Part shown: positions 24,896 through 61,928 of the stretch, one piece after another
How the letters are laid out: each line of letters starts with the position of its first letter
Numbering within the stretch: the first letter of the stretch is position 1
Assembly: GCA_965204535.1 (NCBI GenBank)
Contig: OZ241996.1
Span: forward strand, 704,001 to 768,000
From: a bacterium
GTDB lineage: Bacteria; UBA8248
Direction of reading: 5' to 3'
DNA length: 64,000 nt
The notes under the pieces: model-generated
Seen by the model: the letters and a program-made list of their open reading frames with translations, nothing else
Database searches by the model: none
Told to the model about the DNA's origin: nothing
Translations under genes and position numbers: made by a program

Positions 24896-24941
24896 GTAAT
24901 CAAAACGAAAGCGGGTTCATTACAACTCCAGAGCATCCCGG
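24896..24941 (+). repeat. 46-bp integrase-associated motif, copy 1
   Basis: GTAATCAAAACGAAAGCGGGTTCATTACAACTCCAGAGCATCCCGG. Confidence 0.7.
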
Positions 24942-25287
24942 CGGGCGCTCGTCCGTGAGCGCTCGGGCCAATCATTCAGCCAAGCCGTAATAGCAAGTTC
25001 CCGAACAGCGGCAGTTCGAGATACCGTTCACCGCCAATCGCCAGTCATTCGCAGCGACGACTCGCGAAACAGGGCGCCGCGGTGTGAGCGACATTGTTCC
25101 TTTTTTTCCGTAGCGCCCCGCTGCACGTTCTCCGGCGACCTTCGTTTTCTGGAAAACGCCCGTGATTTCAGGCTGAACCGATGAGCGGTCCGCGCACGAA
25201 CGCAGGCGCGGACTCTTCCCGGGTGTACCTTCCGCGCTAGAAACAACGATTGAACGGGCGCTCGTCCTTTCCTTATGTTCGCGCGCC

Positions 25288-26007
25288 ATGACCGCGTTTA
25301 AAGACGATACCGGCGCCCCGCTGGACGAGCGGCTGCGCCGGAGCATTGCGCTCTGGCGCGCGCGCCGAGGGATGAGTGCGAGGCGCTTCGGGGTGGGCGC
25401 GCTGGGGGTTCCCGGCTTCGTGGGCCTGCAGGCCCGGGGGCGGCCCCTGCGGGTCGACACGGCGGACCGGGTGCTCGCGTTCATGGGGTATCCGCCGCTG
25501 GGACCGCTCCTGCGGGCCGAGGTGGAGGCGTTTCTCGTGGTGAGCGGGACCAAGGTCTCGATCCTGGGCGAGGAGACCGTGGGGAATCCCTCCTTCGTGG
25601 GGAGGCTGCGCCGGGGCGCCTCGCCGTATCTCAAGACCTTCGACCGGGTGCGCGCCTGGATGGCGGCCAACGCGACGGGAGAGGAGATCCGCGCCATACG
25701 CGAGAGGCTCGCGGACTTGCCCGACCCGTTCGACGGGACGTGGGACGCCGCCGGGGAACCCGGGGCCGCGGGAGACGCCGATGAGCGCGCGAAGGAGAAC
25801 CACCTGAACACGCGGGAGGCGGCCGCCTGGCTCGGCCTCTCGCCCAAGACGCTGGAGCGCTACCGCGTGAGCGGAGAGGGGCCGGATTTTCTTCGCATCG
25901 GATACCGGGTGCGCTACCTGCTCGAAGACCTCGAGAAGTGGGCCTCCGCCCGGAGGTGGACTTCCACGTCCGAGGAGAGAGCCGCCCGGAGAAAGAAGAG
26001 GCGGTAG
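25288..26007 (+). CDS. DNA-binding protein: two Cro-like repeats plus C-terminal excisionase/AlpA-type HTH
   Basis: Duplicated unit (FG..ALG.PGFV..L..GR..R.DTADRV.AFM / LG...VGNPSFV.RLRRGASP.LKT.DRV.AWM) and LNTREAAAWLGLSPKTLERYRVSGEGPDF...VRY. Confidence 0.7.
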   Translation: MTAFKDDTGAPLDERLRRSIALWRARRGMSARRFGVGALGVPGFVGLQARGRPLRVDTADRVLAFMGYPPLGPLLRAEVEAFLVVSGTKVSILGEETVGNPSFVGRLRRGASPYLKTFDRVRAWMAANATGEEIRAIRERLADLPDPFDGTWDAAGEPGAAGDADERAKENHLNTREAAAWLGLSPKTLERYRVSGEGPDFLRIGYRVRYLLEDLEKWASARRWTSTSEERAARRKKRR

Positions 26008-26036
26008 AGAGATATTCGGGAGAAGACGGGCGGACT

Positions 26037-26273
26037 TCACAGGCCGTGGCGCAGCCTCGCCATCGCGGCCACGGCCGCCGAGTGCCCCCCCTCGCAGAGA
26101 TCCCCCAGGTACGCCGCTATCCCGGCGTCGGTCTCGGGGTTTCCCGAGCGCTCGAATCCCCTGAGCGCCGTCTCGTACGCCCGCCGCGTGTTCTCAGACA
26201 TCGAGGCCTTCGCCAGGTCGGCGGCCGCACGGGCCGGTCGGGCCGGCCTCCTCGTCAAAGCGATGTCCTGCAT
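26037..26273 (-). pseudogene. Truncated N-terminus of a Cre-like tyrosine recombinase
   Basis: ASMSENTRRAYETALRGF...IAAYLGDL resembles the SAM-like N-domain; stops after 78 aa. Confidence 0.6.
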
Positions 26274-26449
26274 CGGGTCGGATGGTCTTGCCCCCGTCGT
26301 CATGCCGAGAAGCCAACCTTCCGGGTCGGCGGCCGTGTCCATTGCCGGGGCCGCTCGAGCGCCTCCTCGATTACCAAGTATGGACGACGGCGGGGAATTT
26401 CCACAAAAAAAGCCGTTTCGCAGGGGAATACCGGCGAAACGGCGGGTTT

Positions 26450-26661
26450 CTGGAGTCCGATAATTGTCGTTATCAGAAAATTTAACACCTCTCACGGCCA
26501 TGTCAAGCGCAATTCCGGGGTCCTCGGAGGGGTTTCGGGCGTCGTTTTGCGCCTTTTTTCGCTTATATTTCGCTCACTTGCGGCCCGAATGCCCTCCGAA
26601 ACGGGTTTTTGGGGGAAAACGGGGCTTCTGGTGTCCCATAACGACAATTAGCGGACTCCAG
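26450..26661. repeat. Inverted pair of lox/res-like recombination sites
   Basis: CTGGAGTCCGATAATTGTCGTTAT (26450-26473) vs 26638-26661 inverted, 23/24 identical; each site is a dyad with a TTGTCG spacer. Confidence 0.75.
26479..26506 (-). promoter_or_regulatory. Sigma70-like promoter inside the inverted sites
   Basis: TTGACA-16 nt-TAAATT with an extended TG. Confidence 0.55.
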
Positions 26662-26920
26662 CCCGGGTTCGAGGTGGCGCATACCGCAGGGATTCTTGTC
26701 TCGCGGAACCACCGGCCCGGACTACGAGTCCGCAAGTCTACCGTATTTCGGGCTGCCCGGGATACGGCGAACCGGCAGTAGCGGTTTCCTCCAGGGGATC
26801 GCCCGGCACGTCCGCCGGGCGGTCCCTGGCGGGAGAAGTATGGCGAATATCAGGCGGATTCGTATTTTTTATTCCGCTCAGACAATTCCACCAGAGGTAC
26901 CAGAGGGAAGGACCCGGAAA

Positions 26921-28453
26921 ATGAAAATAAGACATCGCATGGAGAGGCTTGCAACCGGAGGCGGCATGGTCCGTCATCCGGAAGAGACCGGCAGAAGCCC
27001 TGGGCGGCCGGCAGGCCCGGGTTTATCGAAGGGCTCCTCCCGTCTTTTACAGGCTCAGGACAGGCCTGACGCGCCCAAGCGCTCACGCGACCGCTTCTCC
27101 TTCCTCATCCCCTGCTTCGCGCTGCTGCTTGTCACGCTCGCCGGTTGCGGCGGTGGCTCGTCTTCCCTCTCGGGCGCGCCGCCCATGGAACCCCCACCGC
27201 CGGTGCACGCGGTGGGCCTGCCCGACATGCACGACCTTTCCGGCTGGCTGACGGCCAACCCCGCCGGCACGGTCACCGTTCCCGCTGGCGAGCACCGCGA
27301 CGTGGGCGGGGTGCGCTTCTTCTGCCCTGCGGGCGGGGCGGACTGCGCGGTGACGGTGACCGCCGAGAACGGGACCGTCGCGGCGACCTCGACGGACGGC
27401 ATGGCCACCGCCATGTTGGCGCCGCCGCCGGTGCACGCGGTGGGCCTGCCCGACATGCACGACCTTTCCGGCTGGCTGACGGCCAACCCCGCCGGCACGG
27501 TCACCGTTCCCGCTGGCGAGCACCGCGACGTGGGCGGGGTGCGCTTCTCCTGCCCTGCGGGCGGGGCGGACTGCGCGGTGACGGTGACCGCCGAGGACGG
27601 GACCGTCACGGCGACCTCGACGGACGGCATGGCCTCCACGATGCCGGTGCCGCCGCATGACCGCTGGGAACATATTTATGACATAGCGGATACACTGCTC
27701 CAATCCAGCGACCACCTTCGTTATACCTTCAACTGGACCGGGCGGGGACAAAGCACAAGCGATCATGTGGTCAATAACTATTCGTGCACTGGATCGCGTT
27801 GCGTCAGCGATGAACGGGTGATTACCGTCGAGGACTTTCGGCATCCGGACAACAGGGTCCAGGTGGCCGTGCCGGCGGAGGACTTGGGATCGCAAGGCGG
27901 GTTTGACACTCTTACGGCCTCGGTCGACGTGGACCTTTCATTTCTCTTCGCGGAGACCACCCTCACGGAGTACCCTTCCTACGACACGTATGGCGTCTGG
28001 GGCCAATACGGTGCCTTACATTTGCAAGTTGTTGACGGACCAATGGCCGGCCAAGTCCAGGGCGTGCCGTTCACGGGCGACCTCAACTATGCAGTCGCGT
28101 TCGTCCTGGGCAATGCCACGGGTACCAACCCACAAGGCACGGGGAGTGCAACCTGGCGTGGCGTTGCCGAGGCCGTCTCGACCAGCACGTTCCAGCGGGG
28201 GCAAGGAACCGCGACACTCACCATCGCAGACCTGTCTCGACCGCGGGTTGGAGTTGACGTCGATATTCCCGGGTTTGCTATCGGCTCGCCCCGTTGGTCC
28301 GACATACCGCTGACGGACGGCCGGTTTGCGACCGGAACCGCCGGAACCGACCGTCTTGAAGGCGATTTCCACGGGCCCGCTCACTACGAAGCCTACGGCG
28401 TATTCGATACGGGCCCTTACGTGGGCGGGTTCGGAGCGAAACGGACCCAGTGA
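26921..28453 (+). CDS. Surface lipoprotein with duplicated 76-aa domain and TbpB-like C-terminal barrel (start uncertain)
   Basis: Lipobox LAGC followed by GGGSSS; C-terminal GSATWRG...GDFHGPAHYEAYGVF...GGFGAKR. Confidence 0.65.
   Translation: MKIRHRMERLATGGGMVRHPEETGRSPGRPAGPGLSKGSSRLLQAQDRPDAPKRSRDRFSFLIPCFALLLVTLAGCGGGSSSLSGAPPMEPPPPVHAVGLPDMHDLSGWLTANPAGTVTVPAGEHRDVGGVRFFCPAGGADCAVTVTAENGTVAATSTDGMATAMLAPPPVHAVGLPDMHDLSGWLTANPAGTVTVPAGEHRDVGGVRFSCPAGGADCAVTVTAEDGTVTATSTDGMASTMPVPPHDRWEHIYDIADTLLQSSDHLRYTFNWTGRGQSTSDHVVNNYSCTGSRCVSDERVITVEDFRHPDNRVQVAVPAEDLGSQGGFDTLTASVDVDLSFLFAETTLTEYPSYDTYGVWGQYGALHLQVVDGPMAGQVQGVPFTGDLNYAVAFVLGNATGTNPQGTGSATWRGVAEAVSTSTFQRGQGTATLTIADLSRPRVGVDVDIPGFAIGSPRWSDIPLTDGRFATGTAGTDRLEGDFHGPAHYEAYGVFDTGPYVGGFGAKRTQ
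27197..27652 (+). repeat. Tandem 228-bp near-identical in-frame duplication
   Basis: GTGCACGCGGTGGGCCTGCCCGACATG at 27203 and 27431. Confidence 0.95.
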
Positions 28454-28904
28454 GACGAGCCGATATTTCCCGCCAGTGCGTACCGTAAGGCGCTTCTGAC
28501 TTTCACGCGGTCAACTGGTCCGTACCGATCCTTTCGGTCGCGTATCGCCATGTGCCGCAGACCCCGGCGGCTTGCGTCGCCAGAGCCTCGTGCCGATGGG
28601 TGCATGGACATTCCGTCCATGAGTCGTCCGCCTGCGTCGTCCGCCTGCGCATTGCCGTTTGGCCTTGTGCTTCCTATACTGCCGCCCGGACGCCGCGCGG
28701 CGGTTCGGGGACTGTCTCCGCAAGTGCGCGGCGGGCGCTGCCGCTCAAGCGCCGCTCGGGCTAACTGCCGATTGCAAAACGGTTTTTATCGCCCGACGGT
28801 TTGAGCGGTCAGGAAGCGGGTTGACGACGCCCCGCGGCGTTTTGTTCTCAGACCCCATGCATCGATTCATTTCAGCTGATCGATGCCTGCCCGCAATCCA
28901 CGAC

Positions 28905-29075
28905 ATGAAGCATCCCGCGAGAAACGATATGAGTTCCGTGACGATGTGACGACCGGACTTTGCCTGCGGATTTTCCAGGGCGGCGGGCACGCCTTAACCC
29001 GCAGCCGTATGGTTCGCCAGCGCAGACGCTGCGCCACCATCGACAACGCCGATACGCCGAGCGTGCCGGCGGCGA
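28905..29075 (+). pseudogene. Remnant of an integrase Arm-DNA-binding domain
   Basis: REKRYEFRDDVTTGLCLRIFQGG...RRRCATI...SVPAAR parallels the N-termini of the intact integrases. Confidence 0.55.
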
Positions 29076-29216
29076 GGAGTGGGACTCACAGGCTTTTCCG
29101 CGTGTTTTCAGGGGGCGGGGCGTTTCCAGCGGTTGTAAAATCTCCTGATCCCGTTGATATCATTGAGAAGCATTCATTTCCCCCGGGTCTCGTTCGGAAT
29201 CCACCATTCGCAGCAA

Positions 29217-29262
29217 GTAATCAAAACGCTAACGAGGGGAATCAAATCCCTGCGCATCCCGG
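29217..29262 (+). repeat. 46-bp integrase-associated motif, copy 2
   Basis: GTAATCAAAACGCTAACGAGGGGAATCAAATCCCTGCGCATCCCGG. Confidence 0.7.
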
Positions 29263-29344
29263 GGCGTGCCTGCCGGTAAGCGTTCGGGCGGGCCGTGATG
29301 GTAGTGCCTTGAAGCAGTAGTTCGGGCCGGAATGGGGGATGATT

Positions 29345-30217
29345 TTACCGGTTGAGGACTTGCTTCCAGTTTCTGCGCAACGGTCGTAGCCAGATGTCCT
29401 TTTTCGGTTGGTCTCGTTTCGTGTATCTGTCGTAGCGTCCACGCCCCTGGGTCATACCGACGTGAATCCACCCCGATGCCCTGTAGACGGCGCCGGTGTA
29501 GCGCGGCGTCTCGACGAAGGTCTCGACGAGGACGGGTGTCGTGCCATAGCGCTCGGTCCAGTCCTCGGGCAGGCGCCTGCGGATGATGGCGAGGAGGTGT
29601 GAGCCGAGGTTGAGGATCCTGATCCATGGCAGGATGAGGAACCTCGGGTTGTCGACCACGAGGGGGAGGTTCTTCTCGCGCAGCTGCGGCGTCCAGCCGA
29701 TGAAGCTGTCGCGCGGGGCGAGCTTCCACGCGGCGGTGGAGAAGCCGAGCATGGCGAGGGGCCTGCCGCCCCGGTCGTGGACGGCGTAGCGCATCTGCGC
29801 GCCGACGAGGGTCTTGTAGCCGAGGTAGTGGTAGCGGGCGACGAACTCGTTCCAGAGCCTGCCCTCGCGGGTTCCGCGCACGGCGACGCGCATATCGAGG
29901 GGGCGGACTTCGTCGAGGGTCTCAGGCGCCGGGATGAGGGGAGGTTCGGTGTCGGGTCCGAAGACGATCGGCCCGGGCCGGTTCTGGCGCCACTTCGGTG
30001 GGGGCAGCGTGATCAGGCCGTCCTTGTGCATGGCCAGCATAGTCACCCGGGCCATCATGTCCTTGAGTCCGCCGTCGGGCTTGTACCAGCCGATTCGGCG
30101 GCAGAACTCCTTCGATAGCGCATGGCGGTTGAGCGCAGGTGGACCTGCGATCAGTTCGCGCAGCAGCGCCATCTCTTCCGTCGTGAAGTCGCGTCCGTGG
30201 TAGCGGCACTCGGTCAC
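29345..30217 (-). CDS. DUF4338 (Druantia DruA-like) domain protein
   Basis: RYHYLGY, RDSFIGW, NPRFLILPW, LVETFVE, YRASGW..VGMTQGRG. Confidence 0.85.
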   Translation of the reverse strand: MTECRYHGRDFTTEEMALLRELIAGPPALNRHALSKEFCRRIGWYKPDGGLKDMMARVTMLAMHKDGLITLPPPKWRQNRPGPIVFGPDTEPPLIPAPETLDEVRPLDMRVAVRGTREGRLWNEFVARYHYLGYKTLVGAQMRYAVHDRGGRPLAMLGFSTAAWKLAPRDSFIGWTPQLREKNLPLVVDNPRFLILPWIRILNLGSHLLAIIRRRLPEDWTERYGTTPVLVETFVETPRYTGAVYRASGWIHVGMTQGRGRYDRYTKRDQPKKDIWLRPLRRNWKQVLNR

Positions 30218-30221
30218 GGCG

Positions 30222-32576
30222 TCATCCCGGCGCCGTGAGGGCGCGCCTGCGCTCCGTGCTCATCGACCAGGGCAGCCACGCGGAGAGGTCCCCGGGCGCC
30301 CGGCCGCCGTTCTCCGCGCAGGCCGTGAGCCATGCCTCCAGCCAGCGGAGCGGGTCGACCCCGTTCGACGCGAGGGTTCCGAGGACCGAGTACATCATCG
30401 CCGTAAACCTGGCGCCGGCCTCGCTGTCGGAGCCGAACGAGAGCCGCCTGCCGATCACAGGGCCCCGAAGCGCACGTTCGCTGGCGTTGTTATCCATCGG
30501 CACCGAGGGGCGTTCGATGAAGACGCTCAGCCCCTCGCGGTGGTTCAGCAGCGAGCGAAGCGCCTTGCCCTCGCGCGCCTGCGCGGGCAGAGCGGCCATC
30601 TCCCGTCGGGCCTGCGCGAACAGGTCCTTGAGCGCCTTCTTCAATTCGTCGTGCGCCGCGTCGAACGCCGCATCCTGGCGTTCGACGCCCGGGTCGTAAC
30701 TGGCCAGGCGCGCCTCGTTCAGGCGGTAAAGCAAGGCAATCCGCTCGATCCATCTCTCGCACCACGGCGTCAGCCGCTCATCGCCGGCGGCGCAGTGGAT
30801 ATAATCGCGCCGGACGTGACTCCAGCACCATGCGAGAGTCACCAGACCCCCGGGAATGCGCGCCAGCTTCTTGTAGGCGCTGTAGCGGTCGCAGACGATG
30901 ACCGTATGGGAGCCGGCCGCGCCGAACAGCTTCATCGCGACCTCAGCACTCCGCGAGGGGTCGACGTGGAAGTAGACGGAGTCTGCGCTGACCGAGGTCC
31001 ACAGCCAGGCGCGGCTCGAGCGTCCTTGTTCGCGAAGCGACTGAACGCGCCACGTCGTCTCGTCCCCGTGACGCACCGCCGCTTCGTTCTGGCGGTCGAG
31101 GATCGCCGCAGCCAGCGGCTCGAAGAGCGGCGTGAAGCGGTGCGTGCTGTCGCCCAGTGTGCCTGCAGAGACCGGAAGCCCCTGGTCGGAGAGCCACGCG
31201 GCGACCCGGCGCAGCGGGCGGAAGCAGGCGTAGCGCTCGAACAGGAAGCGCGCCCACACGCTCGTCCCGTAAGGCGTGCCCGCGAACAGGCGCGGCGCGG
31301 CGGGCGCCGACACTTCCACCGGAGACGACGCGCACGCGCATCTCCTGCGCCATCTCGGACGGCGGATGACGCGCTTGTGGGCCGAGACTTCGATCTCGAA
31401 GATGGAGGAGACCTCGGCGCCATTGGCCACGTAGGGCTTCCCGCAACCGGCGCAGACGCGCGCACCGGCCGGCGGGTTGCGAACTTCGGTCCTCTCATCG
31501 AGCGCGGGCCGCGGGGTGCGGCCATGACCGGCGGCGCCGGGTTGCCGGCCGCGCCTGCGCTCCGAGCGCGGCCTCTCCTGCCGTTCGCTCTTGCGCCCGA
31601 ACAGTCTTCTCGCCAGCACCGCTCCGGTGGCGCGAAGCTTCGCGAGATCGGCCTCCAGCCGCGCCCGGATGGTCTCTGACTTGCGGAGCGCCCTGCGAAG
31701 ACGCCCGTTCTCCCTCGACAGCGACCTGAGCGCCGTCTTCTGGCGCCGCGACCTCCCCAGGGCCTTGCGCAGTTCCTCATCTGCACGAGACGGCGACTTC
31801 GAGCGCGCCGCCTCGAGAGCGCGCAGCAACCGCGCCTTCAGCCGTTCGGTCGCAATGCCTACGGCCCCCAGGGAGACTTCAAGACGGTAGACCTCCGCAG
31901 ACAGCGACTCGACCACCTCCGCCTGGTCGCGCAATCGCCTCAACTTCCTGTAGAGCCCGATGGCCTCCTCGTCCAGGCTCCGAATGGTCTCCTTGTCGGT
32001 CGCCGACTTCTGCTTCTCCAGGGCCAGACGATCTTCGAGCCGGGCAACTTCCTTCTCCCGCCGGCCGACCTCCTTGCGCAGGGCATGAATCGTCTCCTTG
32101 CGCTCCTCCAGGGCCTTGCGCAGCCGCCCCGCCTCCCCCGGCGACGGCACGCCCGAGAGCTCCTTGCGAAGCCGGACGACCTCCATGCGCAGCGACATGA
32201 GCGGGCTGCGCTTGCGCGGATCGACCCCCGCCTCCGCAAGCAGCTTCTCCAGCCGCGCCACTTCCGCCTTGAGCGACAGCGCGTCCTTCGCCGCGCGGCG
32301 GGCTTCCTTCGCCTCCCCGGCGGCCGCCTCGAGCTTCTTCCGGCTGGCGTCGAGATGCCGCTTCAGCTTGCCCGCACGGGAGCGGGAATCCACTTCCGCC
32401 CAACGCAACTCCTCGCAGCGCGCCTCCGCCGCCTCCGCGCGCGCACGCTCGCGCTCGTACAGCGAACGCCAGTACGCCTCTGCGGTTGTGGACAACCCGG
32501 GGGAATGAGGCCATGGCTCATCCGGCCTCTCGGCCAACGCCAACTCCGTCTCGACAGCTTCTGCGCGAATCTTCAT
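30222..32576 (-). CDS. IS66-family transposase (TnpC) with long coiled-coil N-terminus
   Basis: LFGRKSE, CAGC zinc finger, HGDETTW, CDRYSAY, CWSHVRR, DNNASERALR. Confidence 0.92.
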   Translation of the reverse strand: MKIRAEAVETELALAERPDEPWPHSPGLSTTAEAYWRSLYERERARAEAAEARCEELRWAEVDSRSRAGKLKRHLDASRKKLEAAAGEAKEARRAAKDALSLKAEVARLEKLLAEAGVDPRKRSPLMSLRMEVVRLRKELSGVPSPGEAGRLRKALEERKETIHALRKEVGRREKEVARLEDRLALEKQKSATDKETIRSLDEEAIGLYRKLRRLRDQAEVVESLSAEVYRLEVSLGAVGIATERLKARLLRALEAARSKSPSRADEELRKALGRSRRQKTALRSLSRENGRLRRALRKSETIRARLEADLAKLRATGAVLARRLFGRKSERQERPRSERRRGRQPGAAGHGRTPRPALDERTEVRNPPAGARVCAGCGKPYVANGAEVSSIFEIEVSAHKRVIRRPRWRRRCACASSPVEVSAPAAPRLFAGTPYGTSVWARFLFERYACFRPLRRVAAWLSDQGLPVSAGTLGDSTHRFTPLFEPLAAAILDRQNEAAVRHGDETTWRVQSLREQGRSSRAWLWTSVSADSVYFHVDPSRSAEVAMKLFGAAGSHTVIVCDRYSAYKKLARIPGGLVTLAWCWSHVRRDYIHCAAGDERLTPWCERWIERIALLYRLNEARLASYDPGVERQDAAFDAAHDELKKALKDLFAQARREMAALPAQAREGKALRSLLNHREGLSVFIERPSVPMDNNASERALRGPVIGRRLSFGSDSEAGARFTAMMYSVLGTLASNGVDPLRWLEAWLTACAENGGRAPGDLSAWLPWSMSTERRRALTAPG

Positions 32577-33103
32577 GCCGACATCATTAGCACATGTCGA
32601 ATCGCGTTACCAGTCGCCCGGGAAAATTCTATCCGATGGAGGCGATGCGCCCGGCGCCGGGTCCATCACGGCCCGCCCGAACGCTTACGCCTGCCGGATC
32701 ATTGCGCCATCACCCTCTTCGGGCCGGCCCGGACAGTCTGCTCGCGACAATACACCGGCACTCCGCAACGTTGATGACCTTCTGAACGGCGCGCTCCGCC
32801 TGGGGCGTAATCGAACAAGTTCCGGCGTTCTTGTTCATGCGCGTCTCTTCTTTCGTCCCGTTCGCTCATCCCGGGTGCATACGGTAGTCCGCACCGCACG
32901 GAAATAAACTGAAAAACCGCCCGTTTGCAAGGGTTTTCGATATCCGCATTCCAGCGCCCGAGGGCCGGGGCGTTCATCGCGCGCCTCCCCCAGGCCCCGC
33001 GCCGGCGAGAGGCCGAGCCTGGCCGCGAGGGGGCGCGGGAGCCAGGCCGGAGAGGCCGGGCGGCGCCCGCGACCCCTTTCTCACAATCCCGGAGGCGCGA
33101 CTC

Positions 33104-35706: not shown

Positions 35707-35784
35707 GGCGAACCGGGGGGGTAGAGAGAAAGGCTCTCTCCCTCCTGTCACTTTTTCTCACTCACACCACGAAGGAGAATCATC

Positions 35785-51951: not shown

Positions 51952-51997
51952 CTGGGATACGCACGAGTTATAATGAATCCGCTTTCTGCTTGATTAC
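51952..51997 (-). repeat. 46-bp integrase-associated motif, copy 3
   Basis: GTAATCAAGCAGAAAGCGGATTCATTATAACTCGTGCGTATCCCAG; 31/36 identical to 24893-24928. Confidence 0.7.
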
Positions 51998-52440: not shown

Positions 52441-52461
52441 CAGAAAAAAGGCAGATTGCTG

Positions 52462-54452: not shown

Positions 54453-54486
54453 GAGGCGGTATGACGCTTAAGGCTGTTTTCACGAT

Positions 54487-54513
54487 ACCATCACGGCCCG
54501 CCCGAACGTTTAC
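54487..54513. repeat. Orphan IS66 terminal repeat
   Basis: ACCATCACGGCCCGCCCGAACGTTTAC, one mismatch to the 29276 end. Confidence 0.85.
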
Positions 54514-54528
54514 ACCGACATAACCCCG

Positions 54529-54574
54529 CAGGTCTACGCTGGAGTTTGAATTCCTCCGTTTCCGTTTTGATTAC
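54529..54574 (-). repeat. 46-bp integrase-associated motif, copy 4
   Basis: GTAATCAAAACGGAAACGGAGGAATTCAAACTCCAGCGTAGACCTG. Confidence 0.7.
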
Positions 54575-54950
54575 TTCCTCCAGAAAGCAAATCCCGAACG
54601 AAGTTTCCAAAAACAAATACCCGCAACAGTTTCAACAAACTACAAGGATTCCCCGCTCGTCGTAATTCCCCCACTGCCTGAAACCACGCGAGGCGCGGGC
54701 GGGACTGCCCGGGATGTTAAAGCCGGGCGCTTTCAGTGCGATGAAGGCGATCCTAGTTGTCCTGCTGCAATAGCAGCGGAAATCAAACAGGTAAGTTGAC
54801 GGGCAATTACCGACACGGCTACCGCCAAGATGGCAAATACGGCAGTAACAGAAATTGAGCTATCGCAAACTGTCCCAGTCCCACCCGCTTTTGCGAATGC
54901 AGAAAGAACAAGGTGATTGGAGTGAAGTTTTCGGGACTCAGGAGAAAGTA

Positions 54951-55076
54951 ATGGCACAATTTATTACGTCAATACGGATAAAAAACTTCCGCTCTGTTGT
55001 CGAGCAGACTTTTTCTCTTAGCGACAAAACTCTTTCGATATTCGTAGGTCGTAATGATGTTAGAAAAACGAGCTAA
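54951..55076 (+). pseudogene. N-terminal remnant of an ABC/OLD-type ATPase
   Basis: AGGAG RBS; ITSIRIKNFRS...IFVGRNDVRKT degenerate Walker A, then stop. Confidence 0.65.
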
Positions 55077-55170
55077 GCGCTTAACTTGGAGAGGTAGAGT
55101 CACAAGAGACTTTCGCCCTTGATCCGAATAAAAATACAAAGTGCAATTTACCAAAAATCAAAACTCATAT

Positions 55171-57618
55171 TCAGTCACCTGCCGTACGATTCTTTTCAAC
55201 TCTGCGTAAGCTATCAATGAAGATTTCATTTTTCGTATTGCTTTCCAGTAGCCCCTTCAACGTAGCCCAATATTCGGTTGATACCGAGCAAGCAATCTTC
55301 GAACAAATTTCAAATGCCATCGTCTCTTCCAATTTCTGCCATTTCTCACTCATAATTATCTGAGTTCTGGAAGAATTCAGATCCAAGTCCATGCTTCCAC
55401 AAACATCTACCACTATCAACATTGGGAATGGCCAATTCAGTTTTACCTGATTTTTTTGCATTCTCCACGATTCTGGAAATAGCGTTGTAGGGACTTCAAT
55501 TCCGTGCAACGAAAGCCAAGATTTCGATTTCCAATGACTACTATATAAATTCGACTGCTCTATTATTCCTCCTTCATCTATAGTGATTGATGTCGTAGAC
55601 TCCTTTATTTCATTACTGACCATCCGCAAACTCTTGTCTAAAGAATAATCTTCACCTTCAATCACAATAGACTTGGACGTCATTTCAATACTAGTGGTCG
55701 GCGAGCCATGAGACTCTAATATCGCTACAATGACGGAGCCAACAAATCCTTTTTCTTGATTATCAAAATCTATGTTAAATACTCTAATATTATCATGCTC
55801 ATCCCATGTATGTTCTCTTAGTTGTTCAGCCTTTATTTCCTTAAACGATTTTTCATCTCTTATTTTTTCTTGAGATTCTGTTTCTATTACTATCTTGAAT
55901 GGCGGGTTTGGCAATACGTTTTCAACGGACTTAATGAACTCGTCTTCGCTCAAATTATCCCACGGATTTACGTTTTTTCTGAGGAATAGTTTGGTTGATG
56001 TTCCGGGTATTGTTCGTTGCCCCGGCTTTATCCAAAATATGCTTTCTTGGCCTTCAATAGTAATATTTATCGCGTCACTCGAATCGTGAGGTCCATAAAC
56101 TCTTCGGGTATCTACTACCAATGTATCAGCCACCATAAAGCAAGACAAAATCCCTATGCCAAATCGAGATATTGGCATAAACTTCGCCTTTGCTATTGAC
56201 TTTAGTTCATAAAAATCAGGAGACATATAAAATGACGATCCGACTTTTGAATAGTATGCGTCGATAATATGCTGATCCATTCCAGTCCCATTATCAATTA
56301 TCTCAAGTACGTCTCCATCGGTTTCAGTTGAATATTTTATGTGTATCTCTGGTTCGTATAAATTGCCCCAACTCTTTTCCATAGCGCTTCGCAGCAAACA
56401 AGCGTCGATCGAATTCTGCAATAACTCTCTAAGAGGAACTTCTGGGTCACCATATAATTTCGTGCCCATTAATAAATCTATAACTTGATTTTTACTCAAG
56501 TTGAACTGTGCTTTTTTATAGAGATAAAGCGGCTGACCATTAATACCTTTCTTTGTTTCAATTTTTGATCTATCCACCTTAAAGGGAATACTAGTTGTAT
56601 GTTCTTTTCCTTGGTTTCTATCGAAATCGTTTATTGATGAAATAATATTATTGCAGGCGCTTAACTCCCGATCGATAATGTCGCAAAAATCGTGAATTGA
56701 TGCTTCTATAGCAGGATGTATGCACTTGGCATGAAATTGAATAGATTCCTCACTGATAGACCATGCTTCAATAGCTCTGTGTTTATTCCATTCGTTGATC
56801 GATATCGGATTCCTTACAAACAGATGCGAGAATAAGACTTCCGGTGTTCTCTTTGCGTCGAAATCAAGAATATCTGCAAGCCTCAATATCACGGCGATTA
56901 GTTGCAAATTAGCATATATACCGTCCCCACAAAGATAGTTTCTGTCGAGTTCCAAAAGTGAGAGAGCGTCATTACTGTGACTGAAACAAATTTCTGCAAA
57001 ATCGACAGTTAAATCGACGTCTCTATACCTTATTTTTTCATTCCAATGTTTTTCAATAATGTCCCTTGCTCGTTCGGCATGTGTAGCTCTAATGTAATCG
57101 GAAACAATGTAATTTTTCAGCAAATCCGCTTCGCTATTTTTCCCCTGCGCGATGTACGATTCAATCTGCGAGTTAAGCTCCGGCTTTGACAAATAGAATC
57201 TTTGAAATTTACTGAACTCATCGTTTTCTTCATCTGATAGCGATGGAGATATGTCCCAAACCTTTCTCCATGAAGTTACATCCTTTTCTTTAGCCGCCAT
57301 TCCAATATCATGAAAAAATGCACTAAGTATCAACAACATCAATTCCGGGACTGAGAGTTCTTTAATTTTGCCCGGAGAAAGTAGCTTCTCCATTAACTTT
57401 AAAACACGGAATAGATGGTCGCCATCATGGAGAGTAAATTCTCCCATGTGCATTAGAATCGTCTTGGTTTTCTGGTATGCAAAAGACGTTGCTTCATCAA
57501 CGAGAGATAAGACCTGATTGCCAGGAGAATTGCCCTCACATTTTTCCCTTAATGCGCAGTAAATAGCACTCTTGTGTAATCGCTCTTGTGTTTCCGCTTT
57601 CCAGTCATCGCCACTCAT
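55171..57618 (-). CDS. HD-CE-type HD domain fused to Hsp90-like GHKL ATPase
   Basis: FTLHDGDH, FHDIGM, LRLADILD; LYGDP..LRELLQNSIDA, DNGTGMD, SRFGIGILSCFM; start reset to MSGDDW. Confidence 0.85.
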   Translation of the reverse strand: MSGDDWKAETQERLHKSAIYCALREKCEGNSPGNQVLSLVDEATSFAYQKTKTILMHMGEFTLHDGDHLFRVLKLMEKLLSPGKIKELSVPELMLLILSAFFHDIGMAAKEKDVTSWRKVWDISPSLSDEENDEFSKFQRFYLSKPELNSQIESYIAQGKNSEADLLKNYIVSDYIRATHAERARDIIEKHWNEKIRYRDVDLTVDFAEICFSHSNDALSLLELDRNYLCGDGIYANLQLIAVILRLADILDFDAKRTPEVLFSHLFVRNPISINEWNKHRAIEAWSISEESIQFHAKCIHPAIEASIHDFCDIIDRELSACNNIISSINDFDRNQGKEHTTSIPFKVDRSKIETKKGINGQPLYLYKKAQFNLSKNQVIDLLMGTKLYGDPEVPLRELLQNSIDACLLRSAMEKSWGNLYEPEIHIKYSTETDGDVLEIIDNGTGMDQHIIDAYYSKVGSSFYMSPDFYELKSIAKAKFMPISRFGIGILSCFMVADTLVVDTRRVYGPHDSSDAINITIEGQESIFWIKPGQRTIPGTSTKLFLRKNVNPWDNLSEDEFIKSVENVLPNPPFKIVIETESQEKIRDEKSFKEIKAEQLREHTWDEHDNIRVFNIDFDNQEKGFVGSVIVAILESHGSPTTSIEMTSKSIVIEGEDYSLDKSLRMVSNEIKESTTSITIDEGGIIEQSNLYSSHWKSKSWLSLHGIEVPTTLFPESWRMQKNQVKLNWPFPMLIVVDVCGSMDLDLNSSRTQIIMSEKWQKLEETMAFEICSKIACSVSTEYWATLKGLLESNTKNEIFIDSLRRVEKNRTAGD

Positions 57619-58431
57619 GATGCCCCATTTCCTCCTTAATGTATCTAATTGTAACTGCACATCGTTTTTGTTCGCCGAGCAAACACCGATATGCAACCAT
57701 GCGTAGGGGTGGAGCCTTTCCTTTTGGTATATCAGAGTAGCACAGGCGGCGGCTGAGGGTGATACTTTTCGGACAGGACGTAGCTTGACCAGAGAACGGT
57801 GCCACCCCCGGTCAAAGAATCCCTTGTGGATCCGGTGCGCGGGTATGCAATCTGTGCACGGACGCATGATGCCCCTTAGGCGGCCTGCGTCGGCGCGACC
57901 TAGTTATTGGGATGAGGTGATGAGCCGCCACCTTCCTGGCCCCAAATACGGCCCAACGCTATGTAGGTGGCGGCTTCACTATGCAGGGCGACGACTCCGA
58001 CATGTTGGCGGAGTGGGTTAAGGCTGACTGGCCGCTGCAGGAGGCAGATGTGGTGACATTGTTCACCGCTGACTTCCACTGTTTATGGCACCGATAACTG
58101 ACTGGTGATGTCGACGGAGTGGCAGGCCATCCATATCATTCCGTACAACTTCTTTATCCATAACCCCGCGCTGAAGATCCGGTCGAAGTAAGGAGACGGG
58201 CGAGGGGCGCCGCTCCGGAGAGGTGGGTCGGGCGAGAATCGAACTCGCGCAAACAAATTTGCAGATTCGGGTGACTGTCCGCTTGGCTATCGACCACGGT
58301 GCTTTTCGCATTTTGAACAGCATCCTGTTCAGCCTTAGGTCTAGATACGGAGTCTGGGATATGGGGTGGCTCGTGGAGTTCATTGAGGAGCGGGACGCGG
58401 TTGATGAGGTACCTTATGGCATTGTTCCTAC

Positions 58432-59271
58432 TCAACCTGACCAATCGTAGCGAAGGCGACGCAAAAAAGTTCGAGCGGTCACGAGAGCAACGTGCAGGCG
58501 GAAAGTGCTGTGCTCTTCGTCAGATAGCCCAGGATGTGGCCCCTCTTTGTGAAGCATCTTAAAAAGGCCGTTGATGTAGTTTTTTCCGTCACTCGTCCAT
58601 TCATTTCGTGCGGATGATAGAAAATCGAGCTTTTCTAATAGAGCTCGACGGGACTCGGAAGTCTGGCGTTTTTGTGCTTCTTCCGGGCTAATCGAATGTG
58701 CGATTCCATCGAACAGGCTCTCAATAAATGTCCGAATCTGGCTGTTGGCCGCTGCCCAATCGCCACGAGTATGGGCCTTGACCGCTTGATCCAGATGTCC
58801 CAACGAAATGGTAAAATTCTTTTCTTTGAGAAGTTTTCGTATTTCATCGTCCGCTTCGGGTAATTCCAACTCGGAATCAGCCGGTAGCGCGGACAATAAT
58901 ATCGGACGATCTTCGTCTTGATCGAAAGAAATCACGTAACCGTCACGAGCAAGACCGCGCTTAAAGTCTGTCCTTAAATTTTTATGATAATGAGCAAGCG
59001 GTGGTCTCATAAATGTGAGTGCCTCTCGGACAACTGCTTCACCAAGTGTCATGGAACCGTCAAATGTTTCGATGCTAAAGTTCGGGTTGTTTACAAGAAT
59101 TCTAGCTAAAAGAGCACATTTCTTTTTGACGCTGACCTTGGTGCTTTCGGTGATGTGATTCTCAAGGTTCAATCGTATAATCATTTGATCAAAATCGGCT
59201 TGGGTATGCCCTTCCAAGAGCTCGGTAGCCGCAACTAAAGTTGGTCTCGTAAATTTCATTTCATACCCCAT
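58432..59271 (-). CDS. Hypothetical protein, possible HEPN/Abi-like C-terminal domain
   Basis: HLDQA...W.AANSQIRTFIE helix and late H..GPHPG motif; defence-type context. Confidence 0.5.
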   Translation of the reverse strand: MGYEMKFTRPTLVAATELLEGHTQADFDQMIIRLNLENHITESTKVSVKKKCALLARILVNNPNFSIETFDGSMTLGEAVVREALTFMRPPLAHYHKNLRTDFKRGLARDGYVISFDQDEDRPILLSALPADSELELPEADDEIRKLLKEKNFTISLGHLDQAVKAHTRGDWAAANSQIRTFIESLFDGIAHSISPEEAQKRQTSESRRALLEKLDFLSSARNEWTSDGKNYINGLFKMLHKEGPHPGLSDEEHSTFRLHVALVTARTFLRRLRYDWSG

Positions 59272-59534
59272 AAAATATTTCTATAGTATCAGTCTTTCTT
59301 TCTCCAATCCCTGTTTTCTCCTTCAATTCCCTCATTCTGTTAAGTTGGGGCGTATTTACAAAATGACGAGCATCATTCATGCCTCAATGTTGCGATATAT
59401 AATCTTTTTCACTGATCACATATCCAGCTACAATCTCAATTCCAAGTCTGCAGTCTTTACGCGTTCATACACCACAGATCCACGGTCCTTCTGCCTTGAA
59501 GCAGGCACGTCCAGTTCCTTCTTGTCGCCAGTCT

Positions 59535-60704
59535 CTACCCTCCGTCCAGCAGGTCGGCCGCGATGCTCGCGGCTATCCGCTCCGCGGCCTCGCGCACCGT
59601 ATCGCGCGCGAGATGCGCGTAGCGCGCCGTGGTCTGTATGTGGGAGTGGCCGAGCAGCTTCGCGATGACGGAAAGTCCTTCTCCCAGCGCCAGCGCTCTC
59701 GAGGCGTAGGAGTGACGCAGGTCGTGGATCCGCACGTCGGAGAGCCCCGCCTGCGCCCGGACCTTTCGCCAGACGTGATCGAGCCCGCTCAGGCGCGCGC
59801 CCGGCTTCCTGCCGGGGAAGACCCAGGGATTTCCGGGAAGACGCGGGAGGGCGGCCAGGAGTCCGGCCGCAGCCGGCGGTAGCGAGACCACGCGCGCGCC
59901 CGTCTTCGAGTCCGCCAGCCTCAGTTCCGATTCCCCGAGCGCCACGTCCTCCCAGCGCAGCCCGAGGACCTCCGACTTCCGGCACCCGGTCAGCATCAGG
60001 AGCCTGATGGCGGCCACGGCGCAGGCGGACGCGCCGCCCTCCGCCTCCAGCGCGTCGAGTGCCAATCCCAGGCGTTCGAACTCCGCCTCCGTGAGGAACC
60101 GCTCCCGCCTGCGAAGGGGGTATTTCACGATGGCGCGGCACGGGTTCGTTCCTTCGGGCAAAAGCCCCCAGTCGCCTGCCGCCTCGAACATCGAGGAGAG
60201 TACCCGCAGCGCCGCGTTCGCCGCCGCCGGCGTCTCGTGGAGTCCCCGGTGGAGCGCCGCCGCCTGCGCCCCCTCAAGCGATGCGAGCGGTATCTTCCCC
60301 AGAGCGGGCAATACGTGGGCCCGCAGCGCCGCCCGGACCGCGGCGGCCGTGCGCGGCTTGCACCTCACCTCGACGTGTTCCGCCATGTAGCGCCCGGCGA
60401 GTTCGGCCACGGTGGGGCCGCCGGCGGATCTCACGGGCGCGGCCTCCCCGCCCGCCTTGATCCGCGCGATGAGGAGCGCCGCGCGTCTTCTCGCCTCCTC
60501 GGAATGGATCACGCCGTGGCGCCCTACCGTCACCCGCCTGGGTCCCTCGGGCCCCCGCGCCTGCGCGATATACACCTTGCTCCCCGTGGAGTAGACACGT
60601 ACGCCGAAGCCGGTGAGCTCCTTGTCCCAGAACACCGTGTCCTTGTGGACCTCGAGTTTCCCCACCATCCGGTTCGAAACCGTTTTCATTGCGGGCTTCG
60701 TCAT
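59535..60704 (-). CDS. Tyrosine recombinase/integrase with Arm-DNA-binding domain (second of pair)
   Basis: FWDKELTGFGVRV; R (TGCRK), K (DSKTG), HDLR, LGH, TTARY all intact. Confidence 0.95.
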   Translation of the reverse strand: MTKPAMKTVSNRMVGKLEVHKDTVFWDKELTGFGVRVYSTGSKVYIAQARGPEGPRRVTVGRHGVIHSEEARRRAALLIARIKAGGEAAPVRSAGGPTVAELAGRYMAEHVEVRCKPRTAAAVRAALRAHVLPALGKIPLASLEGAQAAALHRGLHETPAAANAALRVLSSMFEAAGDWGLLPEGTNPCRAIVKYPLRRRERFLTEAEFERLGLALDALEAEGGASACAVAAIRLLMLTGCRKSEVLGLRWEDVALGESELRLADSKTGARVVSLPPAAAGLLAALPRLPGNPWVFPGRKPGARLSGLDHVWRKVRAQAGLSDVRIHDLRHSYASRALALGEGLSVIAKLLGHSHIQTTARYAHLARDTVREAAERIAASIAADLLDGG

Positions 60705-61864
60705 CGCTCCATCCTCCCGTTCGTGACGTGGACGCCGATGCTCTCCCCCACGCGGGTGGCCGCCGCCCGCTCGGCATCCCGCATCAGGTGCGCGTAGCGC
60801 GCCGTCGTCGCCACCTCGCCGTGTCCGAGCAGCGCCCCGATCACCGGGAGGTTCTCGCCCAGCGCGAGCGCCCGGCTCGCATACGAATGACGCAAGTCAT
60901 GGAGGCGCACGTCTCCGAGCCCCGCACGCGCCCGGAGGGGCTTCCAGTAGTGATAGAGGTTCGTGAGCCTGCCCCCGCCCCGCTGGGCGCGGAACACCCA
61001 GGGACCGTCCCCCCGCGGGGGAAGCGCGTCGAGCAACGGCCCCGTCAGCGGAACCATCCGTGGTCCCGTCTTCGTGTCTCTCAATCTCAGTTCCCCCGCC
61101 GCGCGGTCCACGTCGTCCCACCTGAGGCTCAGCACCTCGTCCCGCCGGCATCCCGTCAGGAGGAGAATCCTGATCGCCGCCACCGCAGGCGGCCACGACG
61201 TATCGTCTTCCCGCAACACACGGCCCAGCCGGCGGTATTCCGCAGGCGTCAGGAACCGCTCCCGCTTGCGCGTCCTGTAGCGGCGAAGCCTCCGGCACGG
61301 GTTCCGGCCGGGCGGTATCAGTTCCCACGCCTCGGCAAGCGTGAACATCCGCTTGAGCACGTCCACCGCGGCGTTCGCCGTCCCCGGCGTCGCGCGCAGG
61401 GCGTGCTGGAGCGCCGCGGCCTCCGCCTTGCCCACGTCACCGAGGTTCATCGAACCCAGCGCCGGCAGGATATGGTTGTCGAGCACGGAGCGGTACTTGG
61501 GCGCCGTGGACGGCTTGCAGCGACTCGCGACGTACTCGCGCATGAAGCGTCCGGCCAGGTCCGCCACCGTGGGCGCGGGTTCCGCCTCTCCGGAGAGGGG
61601 CTCCTCGCCCCGCCTGATCCGGTCGATGACGGGCGCTGCGCGTTTCCTGGCCTCATCGCACGAGAGCGCCCCGTGGCGACCGAGCGTCACGCGCACAGGC
61701 CCGCGCGGTCCTCTCGACTGCACCACGTAGACCTTCCGGCCCGTTGCGTGCACCCGCACCCCGAAACCCGCCAGGTCCCGGTCCCAGAATACGGCGTCCT
61801 TCTCCTTGACCGCGAGCGCGTCGACCGCGCGCTTGGTGAGCTTGAACTCGCTTCTTCTCGGCAT
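60701..61864 (-). CDS. Tyrosine recombinase/integrase with Arm-DNA-binding domain (first of pair)
   Basis: GGAGG RBS, MPRRSEFKLTKRAVD, FWDRDLAGFGVRV; R-K-HxxR-H-Y intact; ATGA overlap with the next integrase. Confidence 0.95.
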   Translation of the reverse strand: MPRRSEFKLTKRAVDALAVKEKDAVFWDRDLAGFGVRVHATGRKVYVVQSRGPRGPVRVTLGRHGALSCDEARKRAAPVIDRIRRGEEPLSGEAEPAPTVADLAGRFMREYVASRCKPSTAPKYRSVLDNHILPALGSMNLGDVGKAEAAALQHALRATPGTANAAVDVLKRMFTLAEAWELIPPGRNPCRRLRRYRTRKRERFLTPAEYRRLGRVLREDDTSWPPAVAAIRILLLTGCRRDEVLSLRWDDVDRAAGELRLRDTKTGPRMVPLTGPLLDALPPRGDGPWVFRAQRGGGRLTNLYHYWKPLRARAGLGDVRLHDLRHSYASRALALGENLPVIGALLGHGEVATTARYAHLMRDAERAAATRVGESIGVHVTNGRMER

Positions 61865-61882
61865 GGTTCCTCCCGGAAATAT

Positions 61883-61928
61883 GTAATCAAAACGCATACA
61901 AGCGGCGTCAAACGAGAGCGTATTCAAG
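61883..61928 (+). repeat. 46-bp integrase-associated motif, copy 5
   Basis: GTAATCAAAACGCATACAAGCGGCGTCAAACGAGAGCGTATTCAAG, 18 nt from the integrase start codon. Confidence 0.65.

Follow-up and report, generated by a model that had tools for sequence, protein, structure and literature searches.

A 59-bp motif as the probable arm-type array of lambda-like attachment sites and a fixed-distance target of IS66-DUF4338 insertions

Results

We analysed a 64-kb stretch of a bacterial genome (the window; its source genome is G000, and G002, G010, G012, G016, G020, G022, G028 and others are the genomes compared) that carries an island with five copies of a repeated motif. The motif is probably an arm-type array of about 59 bp, with a 10/20-bp period, within lambda-like att sites, and sequence comparison suggests that an IS66-DUF4338 insertion element finds positions +59–61 and +69–72 by recognising the bound site.

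Extent and distribution of the motif

All five copies lie where the original prediction placed them, at 24896(+), 29217(+), 51997(−), 54574(−) and 61883(+). Four open with the exact 12-mer GTAATCAAAACG, expected by chance 0.006 times in the window against 4 seen and 0.27 times in G000 against 16 seen, and the copy at 51997 opens with GTAATCAAGCAG. Pairwise identity among the five is 25–36 of 46 positions; the 31/36 match proposed for copies 1 and 3 is reached by counting three upstream C's, whereas counting from the G gives 29/36. Leave-one-out matrix scores are 28.7–50.4 bits, compared with top background scores of 12.5–20.9 in 20 block-shuffled windows. The motif is real, but its conservation reaches about +59 and not 46 bp as first described; its autocorrelation has maxima at 20 and 10 bp. 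Nor is it limited to the island: G000 has 49 copies genome-wide, associated with 12 loci of a single family of tyrosine integrases, IntA/IntB. We term attR-side or internal copies type A and copies at the intA start (attL side) type B. IHF-like tracts, called against the general IHF consensus, are well positioned across the family (at −70 to −66 in 75 of 219 type A sites), but the window copies match loosely (1–2 mismatches, 24896 being the weakest).

The 49 dispersed copies, a GTAA start as in IS66 ends and one copy immediately upstream of intA could also point to a promoter or a host regulator's binding site, or to a DDE transposon or MITE with the motif as its terminal repeat. This explanation is largely refuted and we hold it to be highly improbable. 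Of 28 type A copies lying on the element side, 24 have the orientation of the type B copy, no sigma-70-like promoter was found at copy 5 (61883), and conserved sequence extends about 100–120 nt past the 5′ end of the motif to the core, so that the motif is not a terminus. The regulator alternative was set aside, too, on the distribution of the motif: within the genus it is present in 16/16 genomes with a close integrase and in 0/5 without any, counts that are not independent because the genomes are related.

Element boundaries and cores

Copies 24896 and 61883 flank a 37.3-kb element that is bounded by the 10-bp core TTTGCTCGTC, sits within a REP-like repeat and is absent from relatives. The core is common to both ends, 107 nt from copy 24896 and 177 nt from copy 61883. 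At the left boundary, the attR core (24789–24798, +) is a direct repeat of the attL core, and its offset of −107 recurs in five G002 elements. It is followed by the half-site TTAGAGAC on the element side and the spacer from core to motif (24799–24895, +; TT(A/T)(G/C)AGAC repeats at about −105 to −97 of type A sites), and then by copy 1 (24896–24954, +; type A), likely the arm-type repeats of the element's attR. At the right, copy 5 (61883–61941, +; type B), likely the arm-type repeats of attL with the IHF-like TATCAGTTATTTG about 106 nt beyond, precedes the attL core (62059–62068, +). The host half of the target is a REP-like palindrome (62065–62092, +); G000 has 28 core-plus-REP matches, 27 of them unoccupied.

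Contigs of 4/4 runs part from the window at 62059, and the window flanks are adjacent in G016 and G020. For a 95-kb G002 element the empty site is present in G000, where its 12-bp core occurs once. As in lambda-type att sites, the short core is doubled at attL and attR and single in the empty site; each arm has repeated motifs at a fixed distance from the core, and an IHF-like site lies between motif and core. Across G000, G002 and G022, 23 of 27 elements share 8–13 bp near +173 to +185 of the type B copy and upstream of the co-oriented type A copy, where the 27 end pairs were picked by hand, partly once matches were known, four had no shared core, and in two of the 23 the longest reported match differs from the core itself; the G000 integrase loci 561528 and 311387, which have no matching attR, were excluded from the pairing. 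Within the window's subfamily the 10-bp core at +177/−107 is common to 6/6 elements and its C/T variant agrees between both ends (4 C/C, 2 T/T; the chance of the covariation alone is 1 in 15), and a third core variant agrees at both ends in G022. Each integrase clade has a distinct core and a distinct dispersed target, and the motif is common to all clades; at least four different cores are used with it, and the targets are dispersed intergenic repeats and tRNA ends.

Tandem integrases and the motif

The two integrase genes intB (59535–60704, −; 389 aa, with Arm, SAM-like and catalytic domains) and intA (60701–61864, −; 387 aa) overlap by 4 nt, and their products are 52% identical. Both have an intact R-H-R-H-Y set and, by Pfam, a PF13356 Arm domain; an N-terminal Arm domain with intact catalytic residues is a further lambda-type feature. 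The intA start codon lies 18 nt from copy 61883, as predicted, and a type B copy is found at the intA start in 12/12 G000 integrase loci. Deviating cases are G028 (two motif copies, no close integrase, best E 3.6e-22), G010 (four copies, integrase fragment only) and the type B copies C2 1072179 and 1072257, which have no adjoining integrase. IntA and IntB form two clades, the core classes being monophyletic in each, and between core classes the Arm domain is better conserved (0.75/0.80) than the core-binding domain (0.59/0.62). The fixed distance to doubled cores, the co-occurrence with this integrase family and the conserved Arm next to a divergent core-binding domain argue for the motif being part of the tandem integrases' attachment sites and, as was proposed, marking the ends of related elements.

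These ends could be att sites whose motif is bound by an HTH_17 (Xis/AlpA-like) protein or another accessory factor and not by the Arm domains, which we judge unlikely. An HTH_17 gene (25288–26007, +; PF12728), a candidate excisionase gene, adjoins attR and is kept there in most elements; its match to the Xis model is weak and far below cut-off. The type B copy, moreover, overlaps the region upstream of intA and is a possible operator. Against such binding stand the Arm domains of both integrases, the parallel between Arm conservation and the common motif, and the co-orientation of the motif at both ends at fixed core distances; in the lambda model, a Xis site is not needed at both ends. For the doubled motif of HE-PICIs, the available account has its authors leave the choice between Arm and AlpA open (PMC10111431).

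Internal sites and cargo

Copy 2 (29217–29275, +; type A) is internal, with an IHF-like tract at 29147–29159 and a GCG-class core CGCGTGTTTTCAG at 29099–29111 (+), 118 nt 5′ of it. The Arm-domain relic reported before this copy was not found by tblastn (E ≤ 1); the sequence there (28668–28945, +) is 86% identical to the 5′ flank of the G002 site 3575018 and represents a relic of another att-proximal non-coding region, without its motif. Copy 4 (54516–54690, −; G at 54574) is also an internal GCG-class site, with an IHF-like tract and its core at 54678–54690. Copies 29217 and 54574 make up an internal class of their own, in which flanks assort at the core. Copy 3 (51939–52104, −; G at 51997) comprises a T1-class attR arm and core (52093–52104), is 80% identical to C2 1735602 up to +106, and is likely the stranded attR of another subfamily, an orphan end. 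The integrase fragment described near it proved to be a C-terminal piece (51537–51749, −) with 66–69% identity to IntA/IntB.

Between copies 3 and 4 lies a cargo gene pair (52456–54452, +) with homologues in G012, G014, G017 and G021. Its AbiEi/AbiEii-like identity agrees with look-alike clusters; Pfam gave no match and PADLOC a weak match only. Integrase-driven excision of this 52.0–54.6 kb module, as envisaged earlier, is not supported: the flanking sites are both attR-like arms and have different cores. The pair is headed by a lone IS66-type terminal repeat (54486–54513, −) at +61 of copy 4; in G012 it starts at the same repeat, fused to a different att end. A conserved backbone remnant (34026–42412, +; zinc-ribbon gene, SSB, DUF4326, SLOG, NikA-like) is broken up by IS110- and DDE-type transposases and lacks trwB and trwC; neither TrwC nor TrwB was found within 24789–62068. 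In 5/5 genomes tested, TrwC/TrwB were found and VirB4 (PF03135) was absent, and by this gene content the family consists of MOB_F mobilizable elements (relaxase and coupling protein, no mating-pair system).

The idea that cargo is shuffled at internal sites held in part: flanks assort at the internal core and direct-site arrays exist, but there was no clean core-to-core move, and neither a circle nor an attP junction was seen in the assembled contigs. The flank patterns suggest that cargo is likely exchanged at the internal class of copies 29217 and 54574. A less probable reading is that the internal copies are only dead ends at which no recombination now occurs, left when whole elements nested and accreted and were then partly deleted (CIME-like). 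Copy 51997, a T1-class attR adjoining an integrase fragment, fits this history, as do other elements in which attR-plus-Xis blocks from a second subfamily are stranded (C2 2394498, 1587181); units between successive internal sites are mostly unique, shared units mostly start at +51 to +204 and not at the core, and available accounts of IMEs/CIMEs describe such accretion (PMC5704250). Yet GCG is the most frequent internal core class (39 sites in G000 and the retrieved G002 stretches, one being a misassigned REP-type attR), and none of the type B ends compared has a GCG-class core, so that no parent element was seen. One backbone flank, moreover, meets many different arms with the junction precisely at the core (among 61 pairs with like outer flanks, 46 have unlike inner arms), and in G022 ten type A sites of one orientation lie between attL and attR, spaced 1–12 kb apart and mostly without backbone genes.

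IS66-DUF4338 insertions at a fixed distance

At +59 of copy 2 lies an insertion element of 3413 bp (29276–32688, −) with 26-bp perfect terminal repeats and an 8-bp target duplication GCCTGCCG, which encodes a transposase (30222–32576) and a DUF4338 gene (29345–30217). The NF033517 score (286 bits, cut-off 180), GTAA terminal repeats and 8-bp duplication place it in the IS66 family. In G000, 7 of 10 IS66-DUF4338 loci are inserted at +59–61 or +69–72 of a motif (P about 3e-26). The same placement was found in 16/26 congener loci, which had been retrieved via the IS, and in two genomes from a different family the IS adjoins the motif at 7/16 sites. Loci off the hot spot (3/10 in G000, 10/26 elsewhere) include fragments, contig ends and nested copies. 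Either orientation occurs, the end adjoining the motif being the left in four cases and the right in three.

Quite unlikely, in our assessment, is a simple preference for target sequence or for resident IS ends, unrelated to the att complex. Positions +52 to +59 are partly conserved (consensus CCGTGTCG), and tandem dimers and nested terminal repeats exist. However, C1 233892 has an insertion at +60 despite loss of the local consensus (duplication GACAAGGA; the site is empty in G002), the second peak at +69–72 lies one helical turn off in unrelated 8-mers and often without a resident end, in the C2 592780 dimer, by our reading, one member sits at +59 and the other at +60 of a single target, and single copies without neighbours, such as that in the window, occur at +59. 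Recognition of the bound att site remains the preferred explanation, and IS66 landing 59–72 bases from the motif likely helps to load new genes into such islands. Our literature search found no paper on IS66-DUF4338 targeting of the motif, and this fixed-distance targeting is apparently new to the literature. Like the 10-bp cores, the REP target and the genome-wide family, it did not figure in the original prediction.

Discussion

The system is closest to lambda-type att sites with arm repeats, and HE-PICIs with their doubled attP motif provide, in the available account, the nearest written parallel (PMC10111431). In both, a repeated motif stands twice, in the same orientation, at fixed distances on the two sides of the core; the motif is shared while core and target vary, and there is an Arm-domain tyrosine integrase with an HTH_17/AlpA-type gene by the site. 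Unlike these, the present family has two intact paralogous integrases, a 59-bp motif and extra internal sites; its targets are dispersed intergenic repeats and tRNA ends at about 12 loci per genome, and it is a mobilizable element and no phage satellite. The 'Tyr duo' IMEs MTnPi1-3 of Prevotella intermedia, as far as described in the available sources, are mobilizable, multi-copy and carry two tandem tyrosine integrases, both possibly required (PMC4755523, PMC5704250). Tandem integrases are shared, but those of MTnPi lack significant homology whereas IntA and IntB are Arm-domain paralogues; hosts differ, and a MOB_F relaxase with coupling protein is, in the accessible part of the 2017 review, reported for no canonical IME. 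SEs, GInts, Tn554 and RITs likewise carry two or more tyrosine recombinases at a single end (PMC10214605, PMC5385486, as available). Compared with these, there is no Tfp/Srap or third recombinase here, cores are direct repeats and not inverted ends with 6-bp footprints, and arm and IHF-like accessory sites as well as a family relaxase are present. The island is not an SE (intA-tfp-intB-srap between imperfect inverted repeats), as intA directly overlaps intB and the ends are direct repeats, nor a GInt (three recombinases and GinD), as each locus has two recombinases.

Integron and pdif cassette arrays have stacked units with recombination sites between them and defence or toxin-antitoxin cargo. 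Similar arrangements characterise CIME/ICE accretion arrays in the source available (PMC5704250). In contrast to all of these, each internal site here is one attR-like arm with no adjoining attL arm or integrase and is not a Xer site. No attC-like hairpins were found at two internal sites (z = +1.44 and +0.84, one strand each), and a TIGR02249 score of 43–44 bits against a cut-off of 265 shows that the integrases are not IntI-type.

For the insertion element, the nearest counterpart is the ISAba32 subgroup of the IS1202 family, which, in the available text, targets Xer sites (bioRxiv 10.1101/2022.12.17.520857; see PMC10132070). There too an IS inserts again and again, also in tandem, a set distance from the site of a tyrosine recombinase, whatever the exact site sequence. 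Here, however, the IS belongs to the IS66 family, has a DUF4338 partner and lands next to the arm array of an integrase encoded by the island, in both orientations and at two positions one helical turn apart. The xrs-targeting subgroup has an IS1202 transposase, a 5–6-bp duplication and its left end always by the site; with an IS66 transposase, 8-bp duplication and both ends in use, the present element is similar in working and not a member.

We propose that IntA and IntB would act jointly, XerC/D-like, each on one half of the asymmetric core, while their Arm domains grip the motif and IHF bends the spacer. The HTH_17 protein beside attR may drive excision, and mobilization of the excised circle would rely on the family's TrwC/TrwB, for which the window copy no longer codes, together with a secretion system supplied by a helper. 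Just inside the arms, cargo such as the AbiE pair is likely added and rearranged by IS66 ends. A bolder possibility, which we put forward tentatively and consider doubtful, is a cassette platform so far undescribed: heteromeric IntA/IntB would integrate the island at repeat-borne targets and recombine one-armed internal sites, cargo would stack and swap integron-like on lambda-type double-stranded sites, and a dedicated IS66-DUF4338 would dock on the integrase-arm complex as a cargo loader inside each arm.

IS66 target choice is poorly understood, and if an integrase arm array is indeed targeted at a fixed distance and in helical phase, this would be the second case of an IS directed to a recombinase site after IS1202/Xer; it would also give the DUF4338 partner gene a testable role. 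With one motif across clades that use at least four cores, the family lends itself to comparing how tyrosine integrases change targets and why two catalytic paralogues are kept; it may also be a source of integrases for multi-copy repeat targets. In Nitrospinota and alphaproteobacterial MAGs each genome has about a dozen such islands, which carry defence cargo (AbiE, SIR2, restriction genes) and are a plausible main gene-exchange route among these bacteria.

A motif family tied to tandem integrases

The motif copies noted in the window at 24896(+), 29217(+), 51997(-), 54574(-) and 61883(+) (copies 1–5) are all present at these positions and are real: the exact 12-mer occurs four times against 0.006 expected by chance, and leave-one-out matrix scores of the window copies are 29–50 bits, with shuffles scoring at most 21. 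An iterated matrix search of the genome under study (G000, contigs C1 and C2) detected 49 copies above 20 bits, 15 of type B, which resemble 61883, and 34 of type A, which resemble the other four window copies. One integrase family is represented at 12 loci of this genome; 11 of these have an intact pair of the tandem genes intA and intB, and a type B copy lies at the start of intA at every one of the 12. On the element side of intA, 24 of 28 type A copies are co-oriented with type B and 4 are inverted; 4 further type A copies lie on the opposite side of intA. Across the genus, the motif occurs in 16/16 genomes with close integrases and in 0/5 without any integrase, in keeping with its proposed tie to the tandem integrases; G010 has an integrase fragment only and 4 motif near-matches. 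The exception is G028, from another family, with 2 motif copies and no close integrase. The motif is also present in records titled Nitrospinota and, together with several tandem pairs at 50–61% identity, in two MAGs titled Rhodospirillaceae and Alphaproteobacteria.

IntA and IntB are 52% identical; each consists of an Arm, a SAM-like and a catalytic domain, and the catalytic residues are intact. The two fall into separate clades, both fully supported, when 23 integrase pairs (one counted twice) are placed in a tree, and core classes are monophyletic in each clade. Between core classes, identity (IntA/IntB) is 0.75/0.80 in the Arm domain and 0.59/0.62 in the core-binding domain, values that include three IntB rows with over-long starts; higher conservation of the Arm domain is the pattern that would be expected if the clades read one arm motif and different cores. 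A PDB sequence search returned distant Xer/integrase matches only, and plasmid homologues do not exceed 47% identity. The Arm-domain relic proposed beside 29217 was searched for and not found.

Counted from its start, the motif reaches about +59, and its autocorrelation is highest at 20 and 10 bp. Type A conservation runs on about 100–125 nt 5′ of GTAATC and then ends, which argues that the motif is not itself the element end. Of 219 distinct type A sites, taken from G000, from fetched parts of the genomes G002 and G022 and from loci in other genomes, 75 have an IHF-like site, judged by the IHF consensus, that begins at -70..-66, and a half-site TT(A/T)(G/C)AGAC lies near -100 of type A sites. 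A promoter reading of copy 5 was rejected, as no consensus match was found there. An Rfam search of the window gave no match; ARAGORN lists a 'tRNA-???' at 58222–58296.

One subfamily shows tandem repetition of the type B motif region, the period being 78 bp (G000 C2 2697679/2697757 and 1072179/1072257); the second locus is without an integrase. Two records (L025 3001–3356 and L032) hold an inverted type A pair 356 bp apart, with IS66-like remnants in between.

Element boundaries and targets

The 37.3-kb element at 24789–62068 carries the core TTTGCTCGTC at both 24789–24798 and 62059–62068, the left one 107 nt ahead of copy 1 and the right one at 177 nt in the flank of copy 5. In G002, five elements whose integrases are 90–96% identical to those of the window have identical core offsets; within this group, four elements (including the window's) have the C variant of the core at each end and two the T variant, and a third variant is present, again at both ends, in an element of G022. 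A REP-like palindrome makes up the host half of the target, and 27 of the 28 core+REP matches in G000 are unoccupied. Contigs of all four runs depart from the window exactly at 62059, and its two host flanks are contiguous in the genomes G016 and G020 (the REP is not kept in G016), so that the island is absent there. Among 27 elements of G000, G002 and G022, paired by hand and partly after matches were seen, with two partnerless G000 loci left out, 23 share 8–13 bp between both ends at the expected offsets; in 2 of these 23, the longest match is not the core. Two core sequences of other subfamilies, TTTCGATAAAT or ATCGTATT, are located in a 44-copy repeat, another subfamily has the core CTACCCCCCCTT, with an empty site seen, and tRNA 3′ ends are targets of further subfamilies.

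At 24150–24550 lies a dispersed repeat that contains CGATAAATTCACGGGGTTTTTCGATAAATT and has GCATTTGCCC-type repeats and an A-tract on its flanks; there are 44 near-matches genome-wide. The repeat itself looks att-like, and two integrase subfamilies target it, each at its own position. An integrase-less 3.6-kb unit of G002 (1113688–1117289), with two type A sites and sensor/response-regulator-like cargo as read from ORFs, is inserted in this repeat, and its empty counterpart lies at about 369140 of G000 C1. G000 also has near-identical copies of one element at C1 183477–221241 and C2 2956531–34468; since G002 synteny changes contig at this duplicate, these contigs may belong to a single chromosome that recombination or assembly has split there.

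IS66 insertion at a fixed distance from the motif

Copy 2 is followed at +59 by an IS66 element of 3413 bp that carries a DUF4338 gene and is flanked by an 8-bp duplication. G000 has 13 IS66 copies, distributed over 10 loci. Seven of these loci lie at +59/+60 of a type A motif copy (binomial P about 3e-26; three are tandem dimers), and 3 lie elsewhere. Congener loci fetched via the IS (the best 30 matches minus three from G000 and one duplicate) lie at +59–61 or +69–72 in 16 of 26 cases. The terminal-repeat pattern starts at +55..+75 in 28 of the 219 type A sites, with 3 matches elsewhere within 400 nt, and by eye a terminal repeat stands at +59/+60 in 7 of 16 sites fetched from G030 and G032. 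The IS can lie with either of its ends towards the motif. Of the 23 genus genomes, 13 have this element, and no integrase-free genome is among them. There is strong sequence evidence that IS66 targets the motif.

The AbiE pair (52456–54452) had been proposed as a module (52.0–54.6 kb) that the integrases could excise or invert. The cores at 51997 and 54574 differ, and no excision joint at 52.1–54.7 kb is present among the 15 joints listed of 47, which derive from contigs and not reads. The pair begins at a lone IS66-type repeat, +61 of copy 4. This start, together with the unlike cores, makes carriage of the module by IS machinery likelier than excision between 51997 and 54574. The same IS66-type repeat and AbiE pair occur in G012, where the join is to an attL remnant at +66 and a second repeat was not found; G014 and G017 have the pair without the repeat. 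Contigs of run X4 cover the AbiE pair and not 54942–59213, a gap that carries no evidential weight.

Internal sites and cargo

Copy 51997 has the arm and core of a T1 subfamily attR and adjoins an integrase fragment, and is therefore likely a stranded end. Copies 29217 and 54574 belong to an internal class with the core CGCGTG/CGCCCG at -115..-118, which is absent from all type B ends among the matches listed; in many elements the conserved attR-side backbone stops at this core, and in G022 a single element carries ten internal sites, all co-oriented. Among 39 sites with this core, a like outer flank accompanies an unlike inner arm in 46/61 pairs, and a like inner arm an unlike outer flank in 16/40, mostly involving two sites. 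Identity-tract breakpoints cluster at the core (-130..-100), the motif start and +40..+79, and a host-derived transporter gene unit is found in two arrays with different neighbours after each. One contig of run X5 links 54574 to 54667 through a different spacer. At orthologous sites (G002 1853745 against window 54574, and also run X5), both flanks are kept and the spacers, about 100 bp between core and motif, differ, as double exchanges would produce.

Units between internal sites are mostly unique, and shared ones usually begin after +51, which counts against a clean cassette model. The single 100% core-to-core match, 7536 bp in G022, overshoots one core by 3.5 kb and reaches +41 of the other motif, and so is not clean proof of core-to-core mobility. 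When empty counterparts of 21 stand-alone sites were sought, none showed a direct continuation. An attC-like hairpin reading of the internal sites was rejected, folding not being in excess. We judge the chance of active recombination at sites of the 29217/54574 class to be a little better than even, with moderate evidence pointing to internal cargo exchange.

Mobilization genes and mechanism

Complete elements encode TrwC, often TrwB, together with SSB, DUF4326, SLOG, a NikA-like protein and an HTH_17 gene adjoining attR, and no VirB4-family gene was found in the 5 genomes searched; this gene content indicates that the tandem-integrase family consists of mobilizable elements. The window's element has lost trwB and trwC. 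A PF03432 relaxase was considered and is not found in G000, the family's relaxase being TrwC.

In G022, different islands (1155978–1163513 and 3715133–3722668) share, at 100% identity, a mobilization block (NikA, Xis-like, TrwB, TrwC) that is placed between two direct internal sites; the identity ends at motif +41. In the window, a 585-aa ORF (26696–28453) that has a lipoprotein-like signal and contains an internal duplication of 228 bp lies between the Xis block and copy 2, and a segment of about 210 bp (26450–26661), bounded by a 24-bp inverted repeat and in opposite orientation in related elements, is a possible small invertible switch. Low-GC defence-like cargo comprises a SIR2-domain protein (44415–46238) and an HD-CE and HSP90-like ATPase protein (55171–57867).

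The lambda and Xer models provide the general frame for a mechanism. By analogy with them, and upon the established boundaries, cores, targets, spacing, co-occurrence and insertion positions, Arm domains would bind the motif, IHF would bend the DNA, Xis would direct excision, IntA and IntB would cooperate, and IS66 may recognise the bound att site.

In published accounts, HE-PICIs have doubled arm-like motifs at fixed core distances, as here (PMC10111431), MTnPi have tandem integrases in multi-copy IMEs, as here (PMC4755523, PMC5704250), and IS1202 homes on recombinase sites, to which we liken IS66 (bioRxiv 10.1101/2022.12.17.520857). The gene sets of SE (PMC10214605) and GInt (PMC5385486) differ from that of this family. 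Among the main texts searched, with few subscription papers, no paper deals with this integrase-element family or with IS66 targeting of att arms. The att sites represent a new variant of the lambda type, carried by a tandem-integrase IME family that is apparently undescribed so far.
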